Shown here piece after piece: positions 10,251 through 28,144 of a DNA stretch of 64,000 bases. Position 1 is the stretch's first letter, and every line of letters begins with the position of its first letter. Below the pieces are notes generated by a model. That model saw only the letters and a list, made by a program, of their open reading frames with translations. It made no database searches and was not told where the DNA came from. The translations under genes were made by a program, and so were the position numbers. This stretch comes from Actinomycetota bacterium (lineage in GTDB: Bacteria; Actinomycetota; UBA4738; JBBDHU01). The stretch spans positions 116,469 to 180,468 of the forward strand of contig JBBDIK010000012.1 in the NCBI GenBank assembly GCA_040880465.1, read 5' to 3'.

Positions 10251-11144
10251 TCAGTCGGGCAGGACGAGGTCGAGTGGCTCGCCGTCGGCGGTGTGGAAGG
10301 TTCGCTCGACCGAGTCCGAGTTGCGAACGCGGGCGAGGACCTTGGTCGTCGGCGGATCCGGTACCGCGCTGGTGATGACCCCGACTTCGGCGCCGTCGGT
10401 GAACACCGCCTGACCGACGCCGACGGCGGCATGCGTCCAGAGCCGGGTGATCACGAACGGGGGCCTCCCGAAGTTGCGGATCTTCGCGACGCTCTCTTGC
10501 CCGAGGAAGCACCCCTTGTCCGCGTCGATCGTTGCCTCCGCAGCCGGATCTTCAGCCGGGAGTGACTCGGCCGTCAGGTCGATCGGGAATCGCGCGATGC
10601 CATGTCGGATGCGCCAGACGTCGAGCGCCTCGTCATCGATCAGCACCAGCCTTTCGGTGAGGGAGGCGATGAGGTCGAACCGGGCCTCCGGATCGGATGG
10701 CGTGGCGACCAGCTGCCCGAACGGTTCCCACGGCGACGCCGTCCAGGCTGCGTCGTGGACCTCGGTTCCCGTCGGGACCGCGAACAGCGTCACCTCGTCG
10801 TCCGCGTCGGCCAGGGCGACATCCGAGGACAGGACGTACTTCGCGAGGAGTTCGCCGATCTGCTCGGGCTGCGTACGGTCTTGGAGCAGCACGTACCCCT
10901 GGTCGGTTCGGGCGACGTGGAAGTCCGACCTGATGCGTCCCGTGGGGGTCAGGAGCAGGGATCGGCGTGCCTGGCCGGACTCCATCCCGGCCACACCGGC
11001 GGTGACGAGGTCGTTCAGCCAGGTTTCGGCATCGGTCCCGGTCACGGACGTCGAGCGGAGGTCGGTCGTCAGGTCGGCGAACGCCTCCCCCTCCTCGAGG
11101 GCCGCGACCTCTTCTTCCAGGAACTTCCCAAGGGGCTCCATCAC
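10251..11144 (-). CDS. ygfZ: folate-binding YgfZ-family protein (GcvT-like fold)
   Basis: 297 aa with the signature DKGCFLGQESVAKI (the K-G-C-[FY]-x-G-Q-E motif of YgfZ proteins). Confidence 0.8.
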   Translation of the reverse strand: MMEPLGKFLEEEVAALEEGEAFADLTTDLRSTSVTGTDAETWLNDLVTAGVAGMESGQARRSLLLTPTGRIRSDFHVARTDQGYVLLQDRTQPEQIGELLAKYVLSSDVALADADDEVTLFAVPTGTEVHDAAWTASPWEPFGQLVATPSDPEARFDLIASLTERLVLIDDEALDVWRIRHGIARFPIDLTAESLPAEDPAAEATIDADKGCFLGQESVAKIRNFGRPPFVITRLWTHAAVGVGQAVFTDGAEVGVITSAVPDPPTTKVLARVRNSDSVERTFHTADGEPLDLVLPD

Positions 11145-15769: not shown

Positions 15770-16849
15770 ATGGCGGAACCGACACGCACCGCGCTCCACG
15801 ACAAACTCGAGGCCATGGGCGGCACGTTCGAGGAGGACAGCGGCTGGCTGTGGATCGATACCTTCGGTGACATCCGCAAGGAGTACGACGCCGTTCGTGA
15901 AGCGGTCGGCGTCTGGGATCTCTCGCCGCTGATCAAGTGGGAGTTCAAGGGTCCCCAGGCCGCCGAGGCGGTCAACTTCGTGAACGGGAACGACATCCTC
16001 GGCGCGAAGCCGGGTCAGGTGAAGTACGGGCCCTTCCTGAACGAGAAGGGTGCGGTCGTCGATGACGGCACCATCTACAAGTTCTCCGACGAGGACCTGT
16101 TGGTGATGACCAACGGCGAGGACCACGGGCCGTACTGGGACGAGCACCTCTCGGACCTGGATGTGTCGATCACGAACGTGGCGCGGCAGATGCCGCACGT
16201 GTCGATCCAAGGACCGAAGTCGCGAGAGATCGTGGCGTCGCTGACCGACGCCGACGTCGCCGGGCTCAAGTACTTCAACTTCATCCCGGAGAAGGTCAAG
16301 CTCGGCGACGCGAGCGGGTACCTCGCCCGGACCGGGTTCTCGGGTGAGCTCGGGTTCGAGTTCTTCACCAACCCGGACGACATCGGAGATCTCTTCGATG
16401 TGCTGATGGACAAGGGGGTGACGCCGTTCGGCGTCGGTGCCATCTACATCCTGCGCCTCGAGGCCGGCCTGCTCATCCCGACGCTGGACTACGACCCGGG
16501 CGAGACGAGTCCCTACGACGTCTCGCTCGATCGGTTCGTGCGGATGGACAAGGACGAGTTCCTGGGGCGGCGCGCGTTGGAGCCGGTCGCGCAGGACCCG
16601 CCGCGCCGCTACAAGACCCTCAAGGTCGACGGGGACCTGCCCGAGGACGGGGCCGTCGTGCTCAAGGACGGCGAGAACGTGGGCGTGTTCCGGTGCGGGG
16701 TCGAAAGCTTCGCGTTCGGGAACATCGGCGGGGCGATCCTGAACAAGGAGGTCGCCGTCGACGGCGAGACGGTCCAGGTCGACGGGAGGGCCGCGACCGT
16801 GCACCCGTGGGGCATCTACGACCCGCAGAAGAAGCGTCCTCGCAGCTAG
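15770..16849 (+). CDS. GcvT-family aminomethyltransferase (paralog 1)
   Basis: 359 aa. HVSIQGPKSREIV, ARTGFSGELGFEFF and RLEAGLLIP match the glycine-cleavage T-protein fold. No gcvH or gcvP adjacent. Confidence 0.85.
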   Translation: MAEPTRTALHDKLEAMGGTFEEDSGWLWIDTFGDIRKEYDAVREAVGVWDLSPLIKWEFKGPQAAEAVNFVNGNDILGAKPGQVKYGPFLNEKGAVVDDGTIYKFSDEDLLVMTNGEDHGPYWDEHLSDLDVSITNVARQMPHVSIQGPKSREIVASLTDADVAGLKYFNFIPEKVKLGDASGYLARTGFSGELGFEFFTNPDDIGDLFDVLMDKGVTPFGVGAIYILRLEAGLLIPTLDYDPGETSPYDVSLDRFVRMDKDEFLGRRALEPVAQDPPRRYKTLKVDGDLPEDGAVVLKDGENVGVFRCGVESFAFGNIGGAILNKEVAVDGETVQVDGRAATVHPWGIYDPQKKRPRS

Positions 16850-16967: not shown

Positions 16968-18077
16968 ATGGTCGACGAAGGCTTCAAGAATGCGTTCCAC
17001 GCCGCCGAAGAGAAGCGGGGCGCGGAGTTCGACCTGGATAGCGGCTGGTACTGGACGGCCCGGTTCCCGGACGACCCCGACGGTACGAAGGGCTACACGG
17101 CAACCCGCGAAGACGTATCCGTCTGGAATGTCTCCCCGTTGATCAAATGGAAGTTCGTAGGCCCGGACGCCGCGAAGGCCGTCGATCGGGCCGGCACCAA
17201 CAAGGTCGAGGACCTCAAGGTCGGCGGGGTGCGCTACTCGCTGTTCCTAGATGAAGACGGGTCGGTGCTCGACGAGGGAACCGTCTACCGGGTGGCCGAC
17301 GACACGCTGTACTTCATGCTCAACACCGACGGCGACGAGTTCGGTGACGAGCTGAAGAAGCGCGCACAGGGGTTGGACGTCGAGATCACCAACCCGTCCC
17401 GTGGGATGCCGAACCTGGCGATCCAGGGACCGAACGCGCTGGCGCTGGTGCAGAAGCTGACGGATGCCGACGTGGGGAGCCTCCGGTACTTCAACTTCTT
17501 CACCGAGCCGGTGGAGTTCGCGGGAGCGCAGGTGATGCTGACCCGGACCGGCTACTCGGGGGAGAAGGGCTACGAGGTCTTCCTCATGGATGCATCCGAC
17601 GCCGACGGGGTCTACGAGGCCGTGGTCGACGCAGGCGCCTACCCGATCGGTACCGACGCGGTGCTTCGGTACCGGGTGGAGTCGGGACTGGTGATCGCTG
17701 CTATCGACTACGCGTCGGAGGCGAACCCGAACACCAGCCCGTACGACATCGGGCTGGGGCACGCGATCAAGCTGGACCACGACTTCGTCGGCAAGTCGGG
17801 GATTGAGGCGACCGCCTCGAACCCGCCGAATCGCTACGTCACCCTGAAGCTCGAGGGCGACGAGGAGTCCGAGTACGGCGCGGAGGTCAAGAAGGACGGC
17901 GAGGTCGTTGGGCTGGCCCCGTCGCCGACCGTCAGCCCGGGTTTCGGTGCTATCACGCTTGCGACCGTGCCGGCGGAGCTGGCGGAGCCGGGTACGGAGC
18001 TGGAGGTCGACGGTCGCAAGGCCATCGTCGACACCGTTCCGTTGTACGACCCGGAGAAGAAGCGCCCCCGCAGCTAG
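16968..18077 (+). CDS. GcvT-family aminomethyltransferase (paralog 2)
   Basis: 369 aa. LAIQGPNALALV, TRTGYSGEKGYEVF and RVESGLVI. Both paralogs end in the same YDPxKKRPRS tail. Confidence 0.85.
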   Translation: MVDEGFKNAFHAAEEKRGAEFDLDSGWYWTARFPDDPDGTKGYTATREDVSVWNVSPLIKWKFVGPDAAKAVDRAGTNKVEDLKVGGVRYSLFLDEDGSVLDEGTVYRVADDTLYFMLNTDGDEFGDELKKRAQGLDVEITNPSRGMPNLAIQGPNALALVQKLTDADVGSLRYFNFFTEPVEFAGAQVMLTRTGYSGEKGYEVFLMDASDADGVYEAVVDAGAYPIGTDAVLRYRVESGLVIAAIDYASEANPNTSPYDIGLGHAIKLDHDFVGKSGIEATASNPPNRYVTLKLEGDEESEYGAEVKKDGEVVGLAPSPTVSPGFGAITLATVPAELAEPGTELEVDGRKAIVDTVPLYDPEKKRPRS

Positions 18078-18132: not shown

Positions 18133-19803
18133 CTAGAACAGGCCGACGGTGTTGCCGTCCGCGTCGATGTCGATGTCGAGGAACGCCGGTGTCTTCCCCA
18201 GCCCCGGCATCCGCTGCATGTCGCCACAGAGCGCGACGACGAACCCCGCTCCCGCTGACGGAACGACGGCGCGGATCGGCAGGCGCCAGCCCTTGGGTCG
18301 GCCCCCGAGCAAGGGGTCGTGCGACAGCGAGAGGTGCGTCTTGGCCATGCAGACCGGGTACTCGCCGAATCCCAGCTCCTCCATACGGGCGATGTCCTTC
18401 TCGGCCTGCGGCAGGTAGTCGACCCCGTCGGCCCCGTAGATCCGGGTGGCGATCGTCTCGATCTGCTGCTTGATGTCGTCTCCGGGCTTGTTCAGCGGCT
18501 CATAGGTGATCGGTCCGTCGATGGCCTTCACGACCGCCTCGGCCAGCTCGATCGCCCCTTCGCCACCATGCGCGAACCCGTCGTTGACGACCACTGATTC
18601 AGCCCCGACCTGGGTGGCAAGCTCGCGCACGAGCGCGACCTCCGCGTCGGTATCGGTGGGAAACCGGTTGATCGAGACGATGCACCGCAGGTTGAACGCG
18701 CGGACCAGCTCGATGTGCGCCTGGAGGTTCTCAGCTCCCGCACGGATCGCGTCGTCGTTCGGCTTGCTCAGTTCCTTGAACGGGATGCCTCCGTGGGACT
18801 TCAGGGCCCGGATGGTGGTGACCAGCACGCCGGCGCTCGGCTTGATGCCGGCGGCGCGGCAGACGATGTGGCAGAACTTCTCGAACCCGAGGTCGGCGGC
18901 GAAGCCGGCTTCGGTGACGACGATGTCGCCGAGCTTCATCGCGACGCGGTCCTCGATGATGGAGTTGTTCGCGTGGGCGATGTTGCCGAACGGGCCGGCG
19001 TGGATCAGCGCCGGCTGCCCCTCGATCGTCTGCACGAGGTTCGGCTTGATGGCCTCCTTGAGGATGACGGTCATCGCGCCGGCCGCGCCGAGTTCTTCGG
19101 CGGTCACCGGCTTGCCGTCGTTGGTCGATGCCACGACGATCGCGCCCAGCCGCTTCCGGAGATCCTGCAGATCCGAAGAGAGAGCCAGGATGGCCATAAC
19201 CTCGGACGCAGCGGTGATGACGGTCTCGTTCTGGCGGGGGATGCCGTGGACCTTACCGCCGAGGCCGATGACCGTGTTGCGCAGTTCCCGCGCGTTCATG
19301 TCCATGGTCCGCGGCCACGAGATGGCGTTGATGTCGATGTCGAGGGGGTTCCCCCAGTACAGCGATCGGTCGATGGCGGAGGCGAGCAGGTTGTGTGCGG
19401 TCGTCACGGCGTGGAAGTCGCCGTTGAAATGCAGGTTGATCTCTTCCATCGGAAGGACCTGGGCGTAGCCGCCGCCGTTGCCGCCACCCTTGATGCCGAA
19501 GACCGGCCCGAGGGATGGTTCGCGCAATGCGAGGACGACGTTCTGGCCGATCTTGCCGAGGCCCTGGGTCAGGGACAGCGACGTGGTCGTCTTTCCTTCG
19601 CCGGCTTTGGTCGGGGTGATAGCCGTGACGATGACCACCTTGGCGTCGGGCTTGTCCTTCAGCCGCTCGAGGATCGACAGGTCGATCTTGGCCTTGTACT
19701 TGCCGTATTGCTCCAGCTCGCTGTCCTCGATGCCGGCGGCGGCAGCGATCTCGGTGATGGGCTTGAGTGCTGCTTCCTGCGCGATCTCCAGTCCGGACTT
19801 CAT
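18133..19803 (-). CDS. fhs: formate--tetrahydrofolate ligase
   Basis: 556 aa from ATG 19803 (MKSGLEIAQEAALKPI...). Contains TPTKAGEGKTTT (P-loop), EPSLGPVFGIKGGGNGGGY and MAKTHLSLSHDP. The upstream part of the 683-aa ORF is junk-like. Confidence 0.95.
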   Translation of the reverse strand: MKSGLEIAQEAALKPITEIAAAAGIEDSELEQYGKYKAKIDLSILERLKDKPDAKVVIVTAITPTKAGEGKTTTSLSLTQGLGKIGQNVVLALREPSLGPVFGIKGGGNGGGYAQVLPMEEINLHFNGDFHAVTTAHNLLASAIDRSLYWGNPLDIDINAISWPRTMDMNARELRNTVIGLGGKVHGIPRQNETVITAASEVMAILALSSDLQDLRKRLGAIVVASTNDGKPVTAEELGAAGAMTVILKEAIKPNLVQTIEGQPALIHAGPFGNIAHANNSIIEDRVAMKLGDIVVTEAGFAADLGFEKFCHIVCRAAGIKPSAGVLVTTIRALKSHGGIPFKELSKPNDDAIRAGAENLQAHIELVRAFNLRCIVSINRFPTDTDAEVALVRELATQVGAESVVVNDGFAHGGEGAIELAEAVVKAIDGPITYEPLNKPGDDIKQQIETIATRIYGADGVDYLPQAEKDIARMEELGFGEYPVCMAKTHLSLSHDPLLGGRPKGWRLPIRAVVPSAGAGFVVALCGDMQRMPGLGKTPAFLDIDIDADGNTVGLF

Positions 19804-19956
19804 CTGTACCCCTACGCTCCGGCGGGCGGGTGACCCGCGATCCGATGTGTCCCCTCGTGAGGGAGAACGGTGACTCGGCGCGCCAGTATATCGGCGGCTG
19901 AGACCCACCTCAGTCGGTCGTTCGGGGGAAACGCAGGTGCCATCGTGTCGCAGGCC

Positions 19957-19962
19957 TAGACT
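19957..19962 (+). promoter_or_regulatory. -10 hexamer TAGACT for a leaderless fdhD transcript
   Basis: TAGACT is followed by 7 nt and then ATG 19970. Confidence 0.45.
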
Positions 19963-19969
19963 GGTGGGG

Positions 19970-20815
19970 ATGGCCGGATCCCTCTCTGACCTGCGTAGGA
20001 ATGTTACCGGCGTGCGCGTAGTTGCCCACACCGGCGGCGCGTCTTCCGAGCGTCCGGACCGTCTGGCGACCGAGGAACCCATGGAGATCCGCGTCGGGGG
20101 GCCCGGCCAGGTGGCAGAGGCGATCGCGGTCACGATGCGCACACCGGGGGGCGACTTCGAGCTGGCGGCGGGGTTCCTGTTCACCGAAGGGCTGATCGCC
20201 GGGCGGGACGCGATCGAGCAGGTCAGCTACTGCGAAGACCTCGACGATGAGGAGCAGCTCTACAACGTCGTCACGGTTCGGACAGTGGCTCCGTTCGATG
20301 CCGAGTCGGTGAGGCGGAACTTCTACGCTACGTCGTCGTGCGGGGTCTGCGGGAAGGCGTCCATCGAGGACGTCGAGGTCCGGTGCGACGCAGTCGAGCC
20401 GGGACCGCTCGTGTCGGCGGAGGTGATCCGGGGGTTGCCCGGCGGACTCCGGGACAAGCAGCGGGTGTTCGACGAGACGGGCGGACTGCATGCCGCGGGC
20501 TTGTTCGATACGGCAGGGACCTTGCTGTCGCTCCGTGAGGATGTGGGCCGGCACAACGCGGTCGACAAGCTGGTCGGTGAGGCCCTGATGGCCGGTCGGA
20601 TCCCGCTGTCGGAACGCATCTTGCAGGTCAGTGGCCGGGTTTCCTTCGAGATCGTCCAGAAGGCAGCGGTCGCGGGGATCCCGATCGTGAGCGCGGTCAG
20701 CGCGCCGTCGAGCCTGGCGGTGCAAACTGCGGACGCGCTGGGGATGACCGTCATCGGTTTCGTCCGCGACGACCGCTTCAACGTCTATACCCATCCCGAG
20801 CGCGTGGGCGCCTGA
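19970..20815 (+). CDS. fdhD: formate dehydrogenase accessory sulfurtransferase FdhD
   Basis: Contains SSCGVCGKASIEDV and GGLHAAGLF...GRHNAVDK, characteristic of FdhD. Start chosen at ATG 19970; alternative GTG at 19937. Confidence 0.9.
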   Translation: MAGSLSDLRRNVTGVRVVAHTGGASSERPDRLATEEPMEIRVGGPGQVAEAIAVTMRTPGGDFELAAGFLFTEGLIAGRDAIEQVSYCEDLDDEEQLYNVVTVRTVAPFDAESVRRNFYATSSCGVCGKASIEDVEVRCDAVEPGPLVSAEVIRGLPGGLRDKQRVFDETGGLHAAGLFDTAGTLLSLREDVGRHNAVDKLVGEALMAGRIPLSERILQVSGRVSFEIVQKAAVAGIPIVSAVSAPSSLAVQTADALGMTVIGFVRDDRFNVYTHPERVGA

Positions 20816-22652: not shown

Positions 22653-22676
22653 GATGAACGAATCAGGGAGGTGGCG

Positions 22677-24656
22677 ATGAAGCAGCGCTACGCGCGGCTG
22701 ACGGAGCCCATGGTCCGTGACAACGGATCCCTGCGCCAGGCGAGCTGGGAGGAGGCCCTCACCCGGGCCGCCGAAGGGTTCTCCGTCGCGCAGGCGAAGG
22801 GACCGCAGGCGCTCGGTGTGTTCAGCTGCTCCAAGGCCTCGAACGAGATGAACTTCCTCGCCGGGAAGTTCGCCCGTCAGGTCATGGGCACGAACAACAT
22901 CGATAGCTGCAACCGCACCTGACACGCTCCCAGCGTCGTCGGTCTGGCGACGGTATTCGGAGCAGGTGGCGGGACAAGTTCATACGCGGAGATCGAAGAC
23001 ACGGACCTCATCGTGATGTGGGGGTCGAACGCGCGCGAAACGCATCCGATCTTCTTCCACCATGTCCTGAAGGGCATCAACAACGGCGCCAAGATGTACG
23101 CGGTCGACCCGCGCCGTACGTCCTCGGCCGAGTGGGCCGATGTCTGGCTCGGCATCGACGTGGGCACCGACATCGCCCTCTCGAACGCCGTCGCCCGGGA
23201 GATCATCGCGGCGGATCTGCACCACAAGGAGTTCATCGAACGCGGCACGACCGGCTTCGCCGAGTACGCGGCCAGTGTCGAGGAGTGGACCCTCGAGCGC
23301 GGTGAGGCCGAGACCGGTGTCCCGGCCGACGTCATCCGCGACCTCGCACACACGATGGGCCTCGCCGACCGCGTTCAGATCTGCTGGACGCTCGGGATAA
23401 CCGAACATCACAACGCGGTGGACAACGTCCTCAGTCTGATCAACCTCGCGCTCCTCACCGGGAACGTCGGTCGATACGGCTGCGGCGTCAACCCGCTCCG
23501 AGGACAGAACAACGTCCAGGGCGGTGGTGACATGGGCGCGATCCCGAACAAGCTCTCCGGGTTCCAGGACATAGAGGAGAACCACGAGGCTCGTCGGCGG
23601 TTCGAGTCGGCGTGGGACTGCACGATCCAGCCGAAGTACGGGTGGCACCTCACGCAGATGTTCGAGGCGATGGCGCGCAAGGAGTTGACGCACCTGTACG
23701 TGATCGGAGAGAACCCCGCTCAGTCCGAGGCCGATGCGAATCACGCCAACCACGTCCTGGAGGGGCTGGAATTCATGGCCGTCCAGGACATCTTCTTGAC
23801 GCGAACCGCGGAGATGGCGGATGTCGTGTTCCCGGCATCGGCTTCTTGGTGCGAGTCCGAGGGGACCGTCACCAATTCGGAACGCCGCGTTCAGCGCGTG
23901 CGGAAGGCGCTCGACCCCCCGGGGAACGCGCGCGACGATATGCAGATCATCGCTGATCTCGCGGGGCGGCTCGGCCGCACGTGGGACTACGGTGCCGAGC
24001 CGCGCGAGATGGCCGAGAACGTCTGGAACGAACTGCGCTCCCTCTCGCCCATGCACACCGGCATGAGCTACGAGCGTCTGGAAACCGAAGGCGGCTTGCA
24101 GTGGCCGTGCACGAGCGATGACGACCCCGGGGCCACCTTCCTGCACGGACGCCTTTGGTCGACGGATCCCGACGAACGCGGCATCCCGGCGCCGTTCAGC
24201 GTGGTCCTCCACGAGTTGCCCGTCGACGAGCTGGATGATGATTTCCCGCTGCGTCTCACGACCGTGCGGAACCTCTCCGACTACAACACCGGGGTCCAGA
24301 CCAGTGGCTACTCCTCGCCGCTCCGGCGTGACGAGGCGCTCTGCGTCTCGCCCGAGGACGGCGAGCGGTACCAGGTCAAGGACGGTGAGGTGGTCAAGGT
24401 CAGTTCCCGGCGAGGGTCGCTCCAGGCGCCGGTTCGCTACGATCCCGCCCTGCGCCCGGGGCTCGTCTCGATGACCCTTCACTTCCCGGACGAAGTCGAG
24501 GTGAACGTGCTGACCATCGAAGCGACCGATCCGAAGTCCGGGACCGCGGAGTTCAAGGCGACGGCCGTGCGGATCGACAAGCTCGCCAACGGCTCCGGCA
24601 ACGGCCGTGGCGCCGGCGCGGGACCGGAAAAGAGCTCCGCCGGGGTGGACGCCTAA
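22677..24656 (+). CDS. fdhA: formate dehydrogenase catalytic (Mo/W-bisPGD) subunit lacking the N-terminal Fe4S4 domain; in-frame TGA at 22920-22922 read as selenocysteine
   Basis: ORFs 22671-22922 and 23013-24656 are in the same frame. NNIDSCNRT-TGA-HAPSVVGLATVFGAG aligns with the FdhF active site ...CARV-U-HGPSVAGL.... The remainder resembles molybdopterin oxidoreductase domains II-IV. Confidence 0.85.
22934..22952 (+). promoter_or_regulatory. SECIS-like hairpin
   Basis: CGUCGUC-GGUCU-GGCGACG forms a 7-bp stem (one G-U pair) starting 11 nt after the UGA. The apical GGUCU resembles the E. coli fdhF SECIS loop. Confidence 0.6.
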
Positions 24657-24658
24657 AC

Positions 24659-26535
<1,877 letters not shown>

Positions 26536-26539
<4 letters not shown>

Positions 26540-27516
26540 GCCAGGCCGTCCCCCTCGCGCCGCCGAAGCGCCTGGTCGATATGGAGGTAGATGGCAAGCA
26601 GGTGCGGGTTCCCGAGGATCGGACCATCCTGGAGGCGCTCCGGGGCGAGGGCGTGGATACCCCGACCCTGTGCTACCTCGAGAACCTCACGCCGGTGAAC
26701 GTCTGCCGTGTATGCGTCGTGGAGGTCGAAGGCTCGCGAACGCTGGTTCCTTCGTGTTCGCGCAAGGTCGAACCGGGGATGGTCGTCAAGACGGACTCGG
26801 ACCGCGTCAAGCACTCACGCAAGCTCGTCCTCGAACTGCTGTCCTCATCGGTCGATATGTCCCTGGTCGATGAGGACACCCAGCGGTGGATGTCCGAGTA
26901 CGAGGCCGAGCCGGAGAAGTTCGGGCCCGCGGCAGCGCCGGCAGAGGCCGGCGAACGGGACGCGGCGCATCCCGGGCACCATCACGAGCCGGATGGGTCG
27001 GTTGTCGCGACCGTCGCGCAGCCGGTCAAGATCGACAACGACCTCTACGTCCGTGACTACGCTAAGTGCATCCTCTGCTACAAGTGCGTCGAGGCATGTG
27101 GGGTCGACGCCCAGAACACCTTCGCGATCGCGGTTGCGGGGCGGGGGTTCGACGCGCGGATCTCGACGGAGTACGCGATCACGCTCCCCGAGTCAGCATG
27201 CGTGTACTGCGGGAACTGTATCGGCGTCTGTCCGACTAACGCGTTGATGTTCAACAGCGAGTACCAGATGCGGGAAGCGGGTACGTGGGACGAGTCGGAG
27301 CAGACCGTGTCACAGACCATCTGCCCGTACTGCGGGGTCGGATGCAACTTGGAGCTCCATGTCCAGGACAACCGGATCGTGAAGGTGACCTCGCCGATGG
27401 ACCACGCCATCACCAACGGTCATCTGTGCATCAAGGGACGCTTCGGGTGGGAGTTCGTGCAGGAGCCCGCAGCCGTCGGGAAGCAGGACGCAGCCGCCGG
27501 GGGGTCCGACGCCTAG
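26536..27516 (+). CDS. Fe-S subunit: 2Fe-2S ferredoxin + 2x[4Fe-4S] + the Fe4S4 domain normally at the N-terminus of the formate dehydrogenase catalytic subunit
   Basis: The GTG start overlaps the previous stop. Contains CYLENLTPVNVCRVCVVEV...VPSC (2Fe-2S), CILCYKCVEAC and CVYCGNCIGVCP (ferredoxin-type), then ICPYCGVGCNLELHV...GHLCIKGRFGWEFV (Mo-enzyme Fe4S4 domain), after which the protein ends. Confidence 0.85.
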
Positions 27517-27535: not shown

Positions 27536-28144
27536 GTGGTGCTGGCGGGTGGCCGGTCCTCGCGCTTCGGCGAACGCGACAAGCTGGCGGAACCGTATCT
27601 CGGGGAACCGCTTCTGCATCGTCCGGTCAGAGCGCTGGACGAACTATGCGAGGAGATTATCGTCGTCATCGCCCCCGAGGCGGCGGAACCGGTACTGCCG
27701 GAGGTCACAGCGGACGTTCGGGTGATAAGGGATACGCGCGCGGACCAGGGACCGCTCGTCGGTCTGACCTCCGCCCTGGGAGTCGTGTGGACCGAGCTTG
27801 CCCTGACCGTCGGCGGTGACATGCCCGAGCTCTCGGTCGACGTCCTTCGGGGGATGGTCCGCGCGGCCAGTGCCCGGGCTGACCTGTCCGCGGTCGTCCT
27901 CGCCGACGGGGATGGTTGGCGACCCCTTCCGCTGATCGTCCGTCCCGATGTTCGGCGGGAAGCGCAGGTCCTGCTCCGGCACCCGGGAGCGGGGCTCCGG
28001 GACCTCGTCCGCGCGGTCCCCTTCGAGGTCGTCCCCGAGGATGCCTGGCGGCGCTTCGACCCGTCGGGGAAGACGCTCTCGGATATCGATACTCCGTGGG
28101 ATCTGCCGGGTGGTGGGGGACCGGGAACTACGACACCTGACTAG
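27536..28144 (+). CDS. mobA: molybdenum cofactor guanylyltransferase
   Basis: (M)VLAGGRSSRFGERDKL N-terminus and ...GDMPELS; about 200 aa. Located directly after the FDH genes. Confidence 0.8.
   Translation: MVLAGGRSSRFGERDKLAEPYLGEPLLHRPVRALDELCEEIIVVIAPEAAEPVLPEVTADVRVIRDTRADQGPLVGLTSALGVVWTELALTVGGDMPELSVDVLRGMVRAASARADLSAVVLADGDGWRPLPLIVRPDVRREAQVLLRHPGAGLRDLVRAVPFEVVPEDAWRRFDPSGKTLSDIDTPWDLPGGGGPGTTTPD

Follow-up and report, generated by a model that had tools for sequence, protein, structure and literature searches.

The gene at positions 22677–24656 of a 64,000-nucleotide (64-kb) stretch of DNA from an Actinomycetota bacterium (assembly GCA_040880465.1, contig JBBDIK010000012.1; the whole stretch is referred to below as the window) appears to be one intact gene for a selenoprotein formate dehydrogenase (FDH), in which an internal UGA codon is read as selenocysteine (Sec). 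We assign this reading a probability of about 0.9. It is carried by the position of the UGA at the metal-ligand residue of the active site, by the retention of the codon throughout a large set of orthologues, and by a hairpin immediately downstream that resembles a bacterial Sec insertion sequence (SECIS) and covaries among relatives. Sec insertion in the source organism itself is what we infer from these comparisons.

An in-frame UGA at the active-site position

The list of open reading frames (ORFs) gives two same-frame pieces, 22671–22922 and 23013–24656. Translation from 22671 through to 24656 meets a single internal stop, the TGA at 22920–22922, in the context NNIDSCNRT-(stop)-HAPSVVGLATVFGAGGGTS. 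The likely start of the catalytic gene is the ATG at 22677, and relatives likewise open with MKQRY; the gene ends with the TAA at 24656. When the stop is replaced, the Pfam family PF00384 (Molybdopterin) covers residues 7–430 in one match that crosses the TGA, and Molydop_binding then follows. A scan of the 64 kb for in-frame TGAs found coding-like composition on both sides at 22920 alone. About half of the window's other ORFs are terminated by TGA, so UGA is not generally reassigned here, and we rejected a general change of the code as an explanation. The tryptic peptide around residue 82, as predicted with Sec, is T-U-HAPSVVGLATVFGAGGGTSSYAEIEDTDLIVMWGSNAR, and the full-length protein would have a mass of about 71 kDa.

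A phmmer search of the Protein Data Bank (PDB) aligned the TGA codon with the X (Sec140) of Escherichia coli FDH-H, the fdhF product (1aa6), pairing nnvdccarvXhgpsvagl with nnidscnrtChapsvvgl. The two proteins share Sec at the homologous position within NN(V/I)D.C.R.-U-H.PSV.GL, at moderate overall identity. The histidine directly after the Sec codon and the RGQ motif are both present in the window protein; this histidine and the RGQ arginine are strictly conserved in FDHs, whose motif classes have been described (PMC8808070). All 11 full-length homologues that were inspected (633–661 aa, from Streptomyces, Saccharopolyspora, Thermopolyspora, Nonomuraea and other genera) have cysteine at the UGA position, in the context ...SCNRTCHAPSV..., and at the four Cys-type loci L085–L088 the codon is TGC or TGT. 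By sequence, the window-type gene and its Cys-type homologues make up what reads as a classical Sec/Cys pair. A preliminary description of this DNA had stated that the TGA alone parts the two same-frame pieces and that it occupies the Mo/W-ligand site matching the Sec of FdhF. The ORF list and the translation bear out the first statement, and the Sec140 alignment together with the Cys orthologues bears out the second; the alignment with Sec- and Cys-type homologues that it had asked for places Sec140 and Cys, respectively, at the UGA position.

A scan of species-representative genomes returned 80 loci whose products are 66–94% identical to the window Fdh, mostly from metagenome-assembled genomes (MAGs) labelled Thermoleophilia, Gaiellales, Solirubrobacterales or "Actinomycetes". 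Together with three further relatives and the window, these gave 83 distinct orthologous genes. The homologous codon is TGA in 83 of 83 and a Cys codon in none, and 553–601 stop-free codons lie 3' of the TGA in each; the gene is therefore not a decayed one. The further disruptions that the preliminary description had named as the mark of a decaying locus are absent from all 83 genes. Its expectation that automated callers would split the gene was also correct. Every relative above about 70% identity that a protein search returned is called as a fragment of 546–562 aa, at 83% query coverage (the closest Fdh match is 94% identical), and on the relatives' contigs a Molybdopterin fragment of 81–84 aa is called directly 5' of it.

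These counts bear on two explanations that dispense with recoding. The first is an ordinary pseudogene, or a sequencing or assembly error, in which a Cys codon (TGC or TGT) has become TGA. TGA is one base from TGC, and annotation pipelines treat such genes as broken, but the same codon stands in all 83 orthologues, which were assembled independently in many studies, there are no additional disruptions, and the RNA-level constraints described below are confined to TGA-bearing genes. We regard this explanation as extremely improbable. The second is a genuinely split enzyme, assembled from the 81-residue peptide and a 547-residue protein started at GTG 23013. The lineage does tolerate splitting, as its alpha subunit is already divided at the boundary of the Fe4S4 and Mo domains. 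However, the 30 codons from the TGA to GTG 23013 would then stay untranslated, although they encode the invariant HAPSVVGLATVFGAGGGTSSY, which includes the catalytic histidine and is conserved in Sec- and Cys-type genes alike; the variation in this region falls mainly at third codon positions, as in translated sequence, and the enzyme would lack its metal ligand. It has hardly any chance of being correct. We thus favour a single reading frame with UGA decoded as Sec, in which case ORFs 22671–22922 and 23013–24656 should be joined as one selenoprotein gene, and the orthologues of at least 80 species-representative genomes need the same merging.

Sec-type genes, 68–74% identical to that of the window, also occur in MAGs labelled as other phyla (L006, L013, L019, L023, L034, L041, L044, L051, L053, L056, L066, L081 and L083). 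The labels include Chthonomonadia, Vicinamibacteria, Methylomirabilota, Limnocylindria/Chloroflexi, Acidobacteriota, Binatia, Eisenbacteria, Armatimonadota and Deltaproteobacteria; these genes could reflect horizontal transfer or mis-binned contigs.

A SECIS-like hairpin downstream of the UGA

The hairpin CGUCGUC-GGUCU-GGCGACG lies at 22934–22952 and starts 11 nt past the UGA, exactly where the preliminary description had placed it. We aligned it, without gaps, over 71 distinct Sec-type sequences. The stem pair between columns 18 and 30 is intact throughout, as C-G in 51 sequences and as G-C in the other 20. The two columns are third codon positions at which the change is synonymous (GUC/GUG for Val, GCG/GCC for Ala), and a protein tree from which the SECIS-encoded residues had been left out requires at least four independent switches of the pair. 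RNAalifold independently gives a stem of 16–21 with 27–32 and the GGUCU loop. Among the third-codon positions past the UGA, 13 of 17 are variable; the invariant ones are columns 6, 21, 24 and 27, the last three of which correspond to the loop with its closing pair. All 83 genes spell the loop with GGT and CTG, even though GGT is a rare codon that accounts for only 10.3% of their Gly codons. E. coli fdhF has the same Gly-Leu codons, GGU CUG, in its loop.

The upper stem starts at nt 15 and has 6–7 bp, G23 lies 20 nt past the UGA, and G23 and U24 are invariant (71 of 71 sequences). This geometry fits the published rules for bacterial SECIS elements, namely a stem of 6–8 bp and, some 20 nt past the UGA, a conserved G in the loop (PMC4605307). 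The E. coli fdhF element shares it: there the upper stem-loop begins 11 nt past the UGA, and G23 and U24 occupy the apical loop (PMC8659212). Covariation supports only the upper stem-loop. We keep the lower stem (7–11 with 40–44) as tentative: three of its five pairs never vary, a fourth shows G-U once, and the middle pair fails to form in 33 of 71 sequences.

The preliminary description had asked for a search with a covariance model. The one that we built used 68 relatives and excluded both the window and the two sequences closest to it; it gives the window element 80.4 bits (E 3.5e-17), whereas the runner-up site in the window reaches 13.9 bits and the Cys-type sites 26–31 bits. The four Cys-type orthologues (L085–L088) encode a near-identical peptide with TGC or TGT in place of TGA, but they lack the GGUCU loop, their loop codons being GGC CUC, GGG CUG or GGC CUG, and several stem pairs are broken. 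The window's hairpin element is identical to that of relatives at 89–94% identity. Judged by these comparisons, the hairpin appears to be a selected, SECIS-like RNA element.

In the 60 codons after the TGA (22923–23102), the G+C content at third codon positions is 0.78, compared with about 0.87 for ORF 23013–24656. This lowered value is consistent with an RNA-level constraint on codon choice around the SECIS.

Points against Sec decoding and the location of the sel genes

Several observations count against Sec decoding, some concerning the hairpin and others the decoding machinery. The single-sequence fold is thermodynamically unexceptional for GC-rich RNA: for the 23-nt hairpin the minimum free energy is -10.6 kcal/mol and z is -2.4, and for the 47-nt element z is -1.4. 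We rejected these z-scores as insufficient evidence, and since thermodynamics alone is unremarkable, the significance of the hairpin rests on the comparison with relatives. Rfam at its gathering thresholds gave no match in the window. In permissive mode the top family was SECIS_3 (RF01989), at 14.9 bits (E 0.66). The full length of the model is matched, with the UGA in register and a similar (A/G)GUCU loop, but the score is well below the gathering score of 63, so by the Rfam criterion the window element is not a member of SECIS_3. Finally, the bulged U17 that the E. coli fdhF SECIS requires is not present: U17 is invariant but paired, with A31 in 65 sequences and G31 in 6, no bulge is predicted, and the window stem of 6–7 bp is unbulged. 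The likeness to the fdhF SECIS loop that the preliminary description had drawn therefore stands for G23 and U24 and fails for U17. The fdhA SECIS of Moorella thermoacetica is likewise an unbulged hairpin with a GGUCU loop.

The weak z-scores and the score below the Rfam threshold, together with the location of the hairpin in highly conserved coding sequence, are also what would be expected if the hairpin were a by-product of the conserved PSVVGLA peptide in GC-rich DNA, with read-through, if any, independent of it. But Cys-type orthologues with nearly the same peptide lose the loop and several pairs and score far below the window, and the sites that covary or stay invariant are synonymous ones, which are free of protein constraint. 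We consider a by-product very improbable and prefer a hairpin that has been selected as RNA.

As to the decoding machinery, the 64-kb window has no tRNA gene and hence no tRNA-Sec, tblastn of the window for SelA, SelB and SelD gave no match, and Pfam scans of its larger ORFs found no sel gene. The refuting check named in the preliminary description, absence of this machinery from the genome, was applied to these 64 kb, and none of it lies there. Window ORFs of about 330 aa that were considered as sel candidates were rejected as GNAT acetyltransferases, an ABC ATPase, a glycosyltransferase and an ornithine cyclodeaminase. In related genomes, ARAGORN located a tRNA-Sec gene (anticodon tca) no more than a few kb from fdh in ten loci (L025, L026, L035, L036, L040, L052, L073, L075, L079 and L082), and Pfam and tblastn identify the ORFs adjoining fdh in these loci as SelD, SelA and SelB. 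In part of the clade, therefore, the fdh orthologue and the complete recoding machinery sit side by side in the genome; such linkage is known from single-selenoprotein organisms (PMC1794560, PMC5029168). These sel-linked relatives are distant ones, with Fdh 66–69% identical to that of the window, which also tells against the reading. In most related loci, however, the sel genes are beyond the 10-kb flanks too, and absence from the window therefore says little. In one of the ten loci (L073:5353–8725), tblastn matched SelA, SelB and SelD only in part and at a lower identity of 51–58%, although tRNA-Sec and the fdh TGA are present; either indels from long-read assembly or decay of the sel genes could be the cause.

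The missing sel genes and tRNA-Sec would also suit a relic, in which the source genome has lost its Sec machinery, the UGA terminates translation or is weakly read by a near-cognate tRNA, and the gene has newly become non-functional. Selenoprotein loss is common in bacteria (PMC1794560), and some mycobacteria keep FDH pseudogenes that retain the SECIS (PMC13449736). On the other side, the 577 downstream codons are intact with a coding signature, the SECIS is the same as in the closest relatives and scores 80 bits, the accessory genes are all intact, and, as noted, sel genes outside the 10-kb flanks are the usual arrangement among related loci. We consider a relic improbable and retain a functional selenoprotein gene as our interpretation.

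The operon, the enzyme type and its meaning

The catalytic protein matches FdhF (FDH-H) over residues 61–690, at 414 bits, and Rhodobacter FdsA over residues 307–937; given these spans, it lacks the N-terminal Fe4S4 domain. The two genes that follow appear to supply the rest of the enzyme (Table 1). The product of 24659–26539 matches the FdsB chains 6tg9_B and 6vw7_B and the Fdh1B chain 7e5z_B of Methylorubrum. The third gene starts with a GTG that overlaps the stop codon of the NuoE-NuoF gene; its product, 326 aa in relatives, has the Molybdop_Fe4S4 motif CxxCxxxC...C, read as CPYCGVGC...C. The alpha subunit is thus split at the boundary of the Fe4S4 and Mo domains, near FdsA residue 305, and the gene order is permuted, beginning with the Mo half, continuing with the NuoEF flavoprotein and ending with the FeS half. 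Taken together, the three products point to a soluble FDH of the FdsABG/FDH1 type with a split alpha subunit, and the enzyme is probably NAD-linked, judging from its domains. Here we infer NAD+ coupling, the metal used and assembly in trans alike.

Table 1. Coordinates of the catalytic gene, its recoding signals and neighbouring genes in the window
Feature	Position	Strand	Description or basis
Catalytic FDH gene	22677–24656	+	659 codons including Sec82; Mo/W-bis(pyranopterin guanine dinucleotide) (bisPGD) catalytic domain
Shine-Dalgarno-like AGGGAGG	22665–22671	+	5 nt 5' of the start codon; direct reading of the sequence
UGA codon, putative selenocysteine	22920–22922	+	FDH-H Sec140 alignment; Cys in orthologues; 83/83 conservation
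SECIS-like element	22926–22963	+	Covariation, RNAalifold, covariance model
Lower stem (7–11/40–44)	22926–22930 with 22959–22963	+	Tentative
Upper stem	22934–22940 with 22946–22952	+	Covariation-supported
Apical loop GGUCU	22941–22945	+	G23 = 22942, U24 = 22943
NuoE-NuoF fusion, FdsG+FdsB / Fdh1B-like flavoprotein	24659–26539	+	2Fe-2S, flavin mononucleotide (FMN)/NAD(H)-binding and 4Fe-4S domains
Iron-sulfur subunit, corresponding to FdsA residues 25–303	26536–27516	+	Fer2_4, two Fer4, C-terminal Molybdop_Fe4S4
MobA-like NTP transferase (molybdenum cofactor guanylylation)	27536–28144	+	Pfam
FdhD/FdsC-type FDH maturation factor	19937–20815	+	Pfam
Formate–tetrahydrofolate ligase, context gene	18133–19803	-	Pfam

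In the mechanism that we propose, the catalytic gene would yield one polypeptide, the Mo- or W-containing catalytic subunit of a soluble FDH. The UGA would be recoded to Sec, which would ligate the metal, and the stem-loop within the coding sequence would direct this recoding, presumably by binding SelB. The proximal [4Fe-4S] cluster and the remaining NuoG-like iron-sulfur chain would come from the product of the third gene, and the NuoE-NuoF fusion would bear FMN and the NAD(H) site. The three products would jointly form an NAD-linked formate:CO2 oxidoreductase of the FdsABG/FDH1 type, with the neighbouring FdhD and MobA maturing its cofactor.

The operon has the same inventory of cofactor domains as FdsABG(D) of Rhodobacter capsulatus and Cupriavidus necator, and the NuoE and NuoF modules are fused as in Fdh1B of the Methylorubrum extorquens FDH1 (Fdh1AB). 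The FdhD/FdsC partner of FdsABG has a counterpart near the operon, and no FdsD was identified. The window differs in that its alpha subunit is made of two polypeptides, in reversed order around the flavoprotein gene, and in that it has a Sec codon, whereas the structurally characterised members of the class all have Cys (PMC13397495). A Sec codon in an enzyme of this type is a variant feature and no criterion for exclusion. The split architecture is not special to the window, since the Cys-type loci of Streptomyces, Thermopolyspora and Saccharopolyspora (L086–L088) also have it; the same three-gene arrangement is found at L085, which in addition has the formate–tetrahydrofolate ligase, FdhD, GcvT and MobA neighbourhood in common with the window. 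Catalytic proteins of the Cys-type orthologues (Streptomyces, Thermopolyspora, Saccharopolyspora, Nonomuraea and others; e.g. P0035, P0063, P0005) are 62–67% identical to the window product.

Other selenoprotein FDHs are less close in type. E. coli FdhF has its own N-terminal Fe4S4 domain and is coupled to a hydrogenase, not to NAD. The mycobacterial FDH is likewise an actinobacterial selenoprotein with a SECIS right after the UGA, sel genes often nearby and a two-gene mis-annotation, but it is of the FDH-O/FdoG type, about 1064 aa long and not NAD-linked or FdsA-like, and comes from another actinobacterial class (PMC13449736). The NAD(P)-dependent Sec-FDH of acetogens (e.g. Moorella thermoacetica FdhAB) is cytoplasmic and linked to pyridine nucleotides, and the pyridine-nucleotide-linked class has been given as Sec/Cys (PMC7331816); it differs in lineage, in serving anaerobic acetogenesis and in having an unsplit alpha subunit.

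Some further features of the operon and its surroundings were observed. A metagenomic relative with 94% identity (L001:11644–14472) has the NuoEF and FeS-half genes called as one 942-aa fusion (FdsG-FdsB-FdsA-N), which is either a real fusion or an assembly or frameshift artefact. Within the NuoF-like gene of the window, positions 26361–26399 hold a perfect 9-bp tandem repeat, CCAACGGGT, in 4.3 copies; it encodes (NGS)x4 ahead of the C-terminal 4Fe-4S region, and the homologue at L003 is 9 residues shorter. The ORF of the formate–tetrahydrofolate ligase extends to 20184, with its Pfam match beginning at residue 130, and relatives call a protein of 556 aa. This gene lies upstream of the FDH operon with three GcvT-like aminomethyltransferase paralogues (10251–11144 on the minus strand, 15770–16849 and 16968–18077 on the plus strand), and relatives add a 5-formyl-tetrahydrofolate cyclo-ligase. 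The cluster points to a formate/folate one-carbon (C1) module, with a possible role in formate assimilation.

FdhA is the most widespread bacterial selenoprotein (PMC5029168, PMC1794560), recorded in 822 organisms (PMC5029168), and Sec-FDHs with sel genes are documented in Actinobacteria such as mycobacteria, where annotation also fails at the UGA (PMC13449736). With FdhA selenoproteins and UGA mis-annotation already so well documented, neither the annotation nor the biology reported here overturns current understanding. We found no description of a Sec form of the FdsABG/FDH1 class, nor of selenoproteins in Thermoleophilia, in the searchable literature. We propose tentatively, at odds well below even, that at least 80 species-level lineages form a large, apparently undescribed clade of Sec-containing, NAD-linked FDHs of the FdsABG/FDH1 type with a split, permuted alpha subunit; the clade may consist mostly of soil Thermoleophilia, Gaiellales and Solirubrobacterales.

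Current gene catalogues carry the gene as two fragments. If it is read as one, formate oxidation or CO2 reduction needs selenium in a widespread soil-dwelling group of Actinomycetota, and the natural Sec/Cys orthologue pairs of an NAD-linked, split-alpha FDH would allow catalysis to be compared between the two forms. If the proposal is true, formate and C1 metabolism of abundant, largely aerobic soil Actinomycetota would be selenium-dependent, and these organisms would hold naturally oxygen-exposed, NADH-coupled Sec-FDHs, which would be of interest for CO2 reduction.

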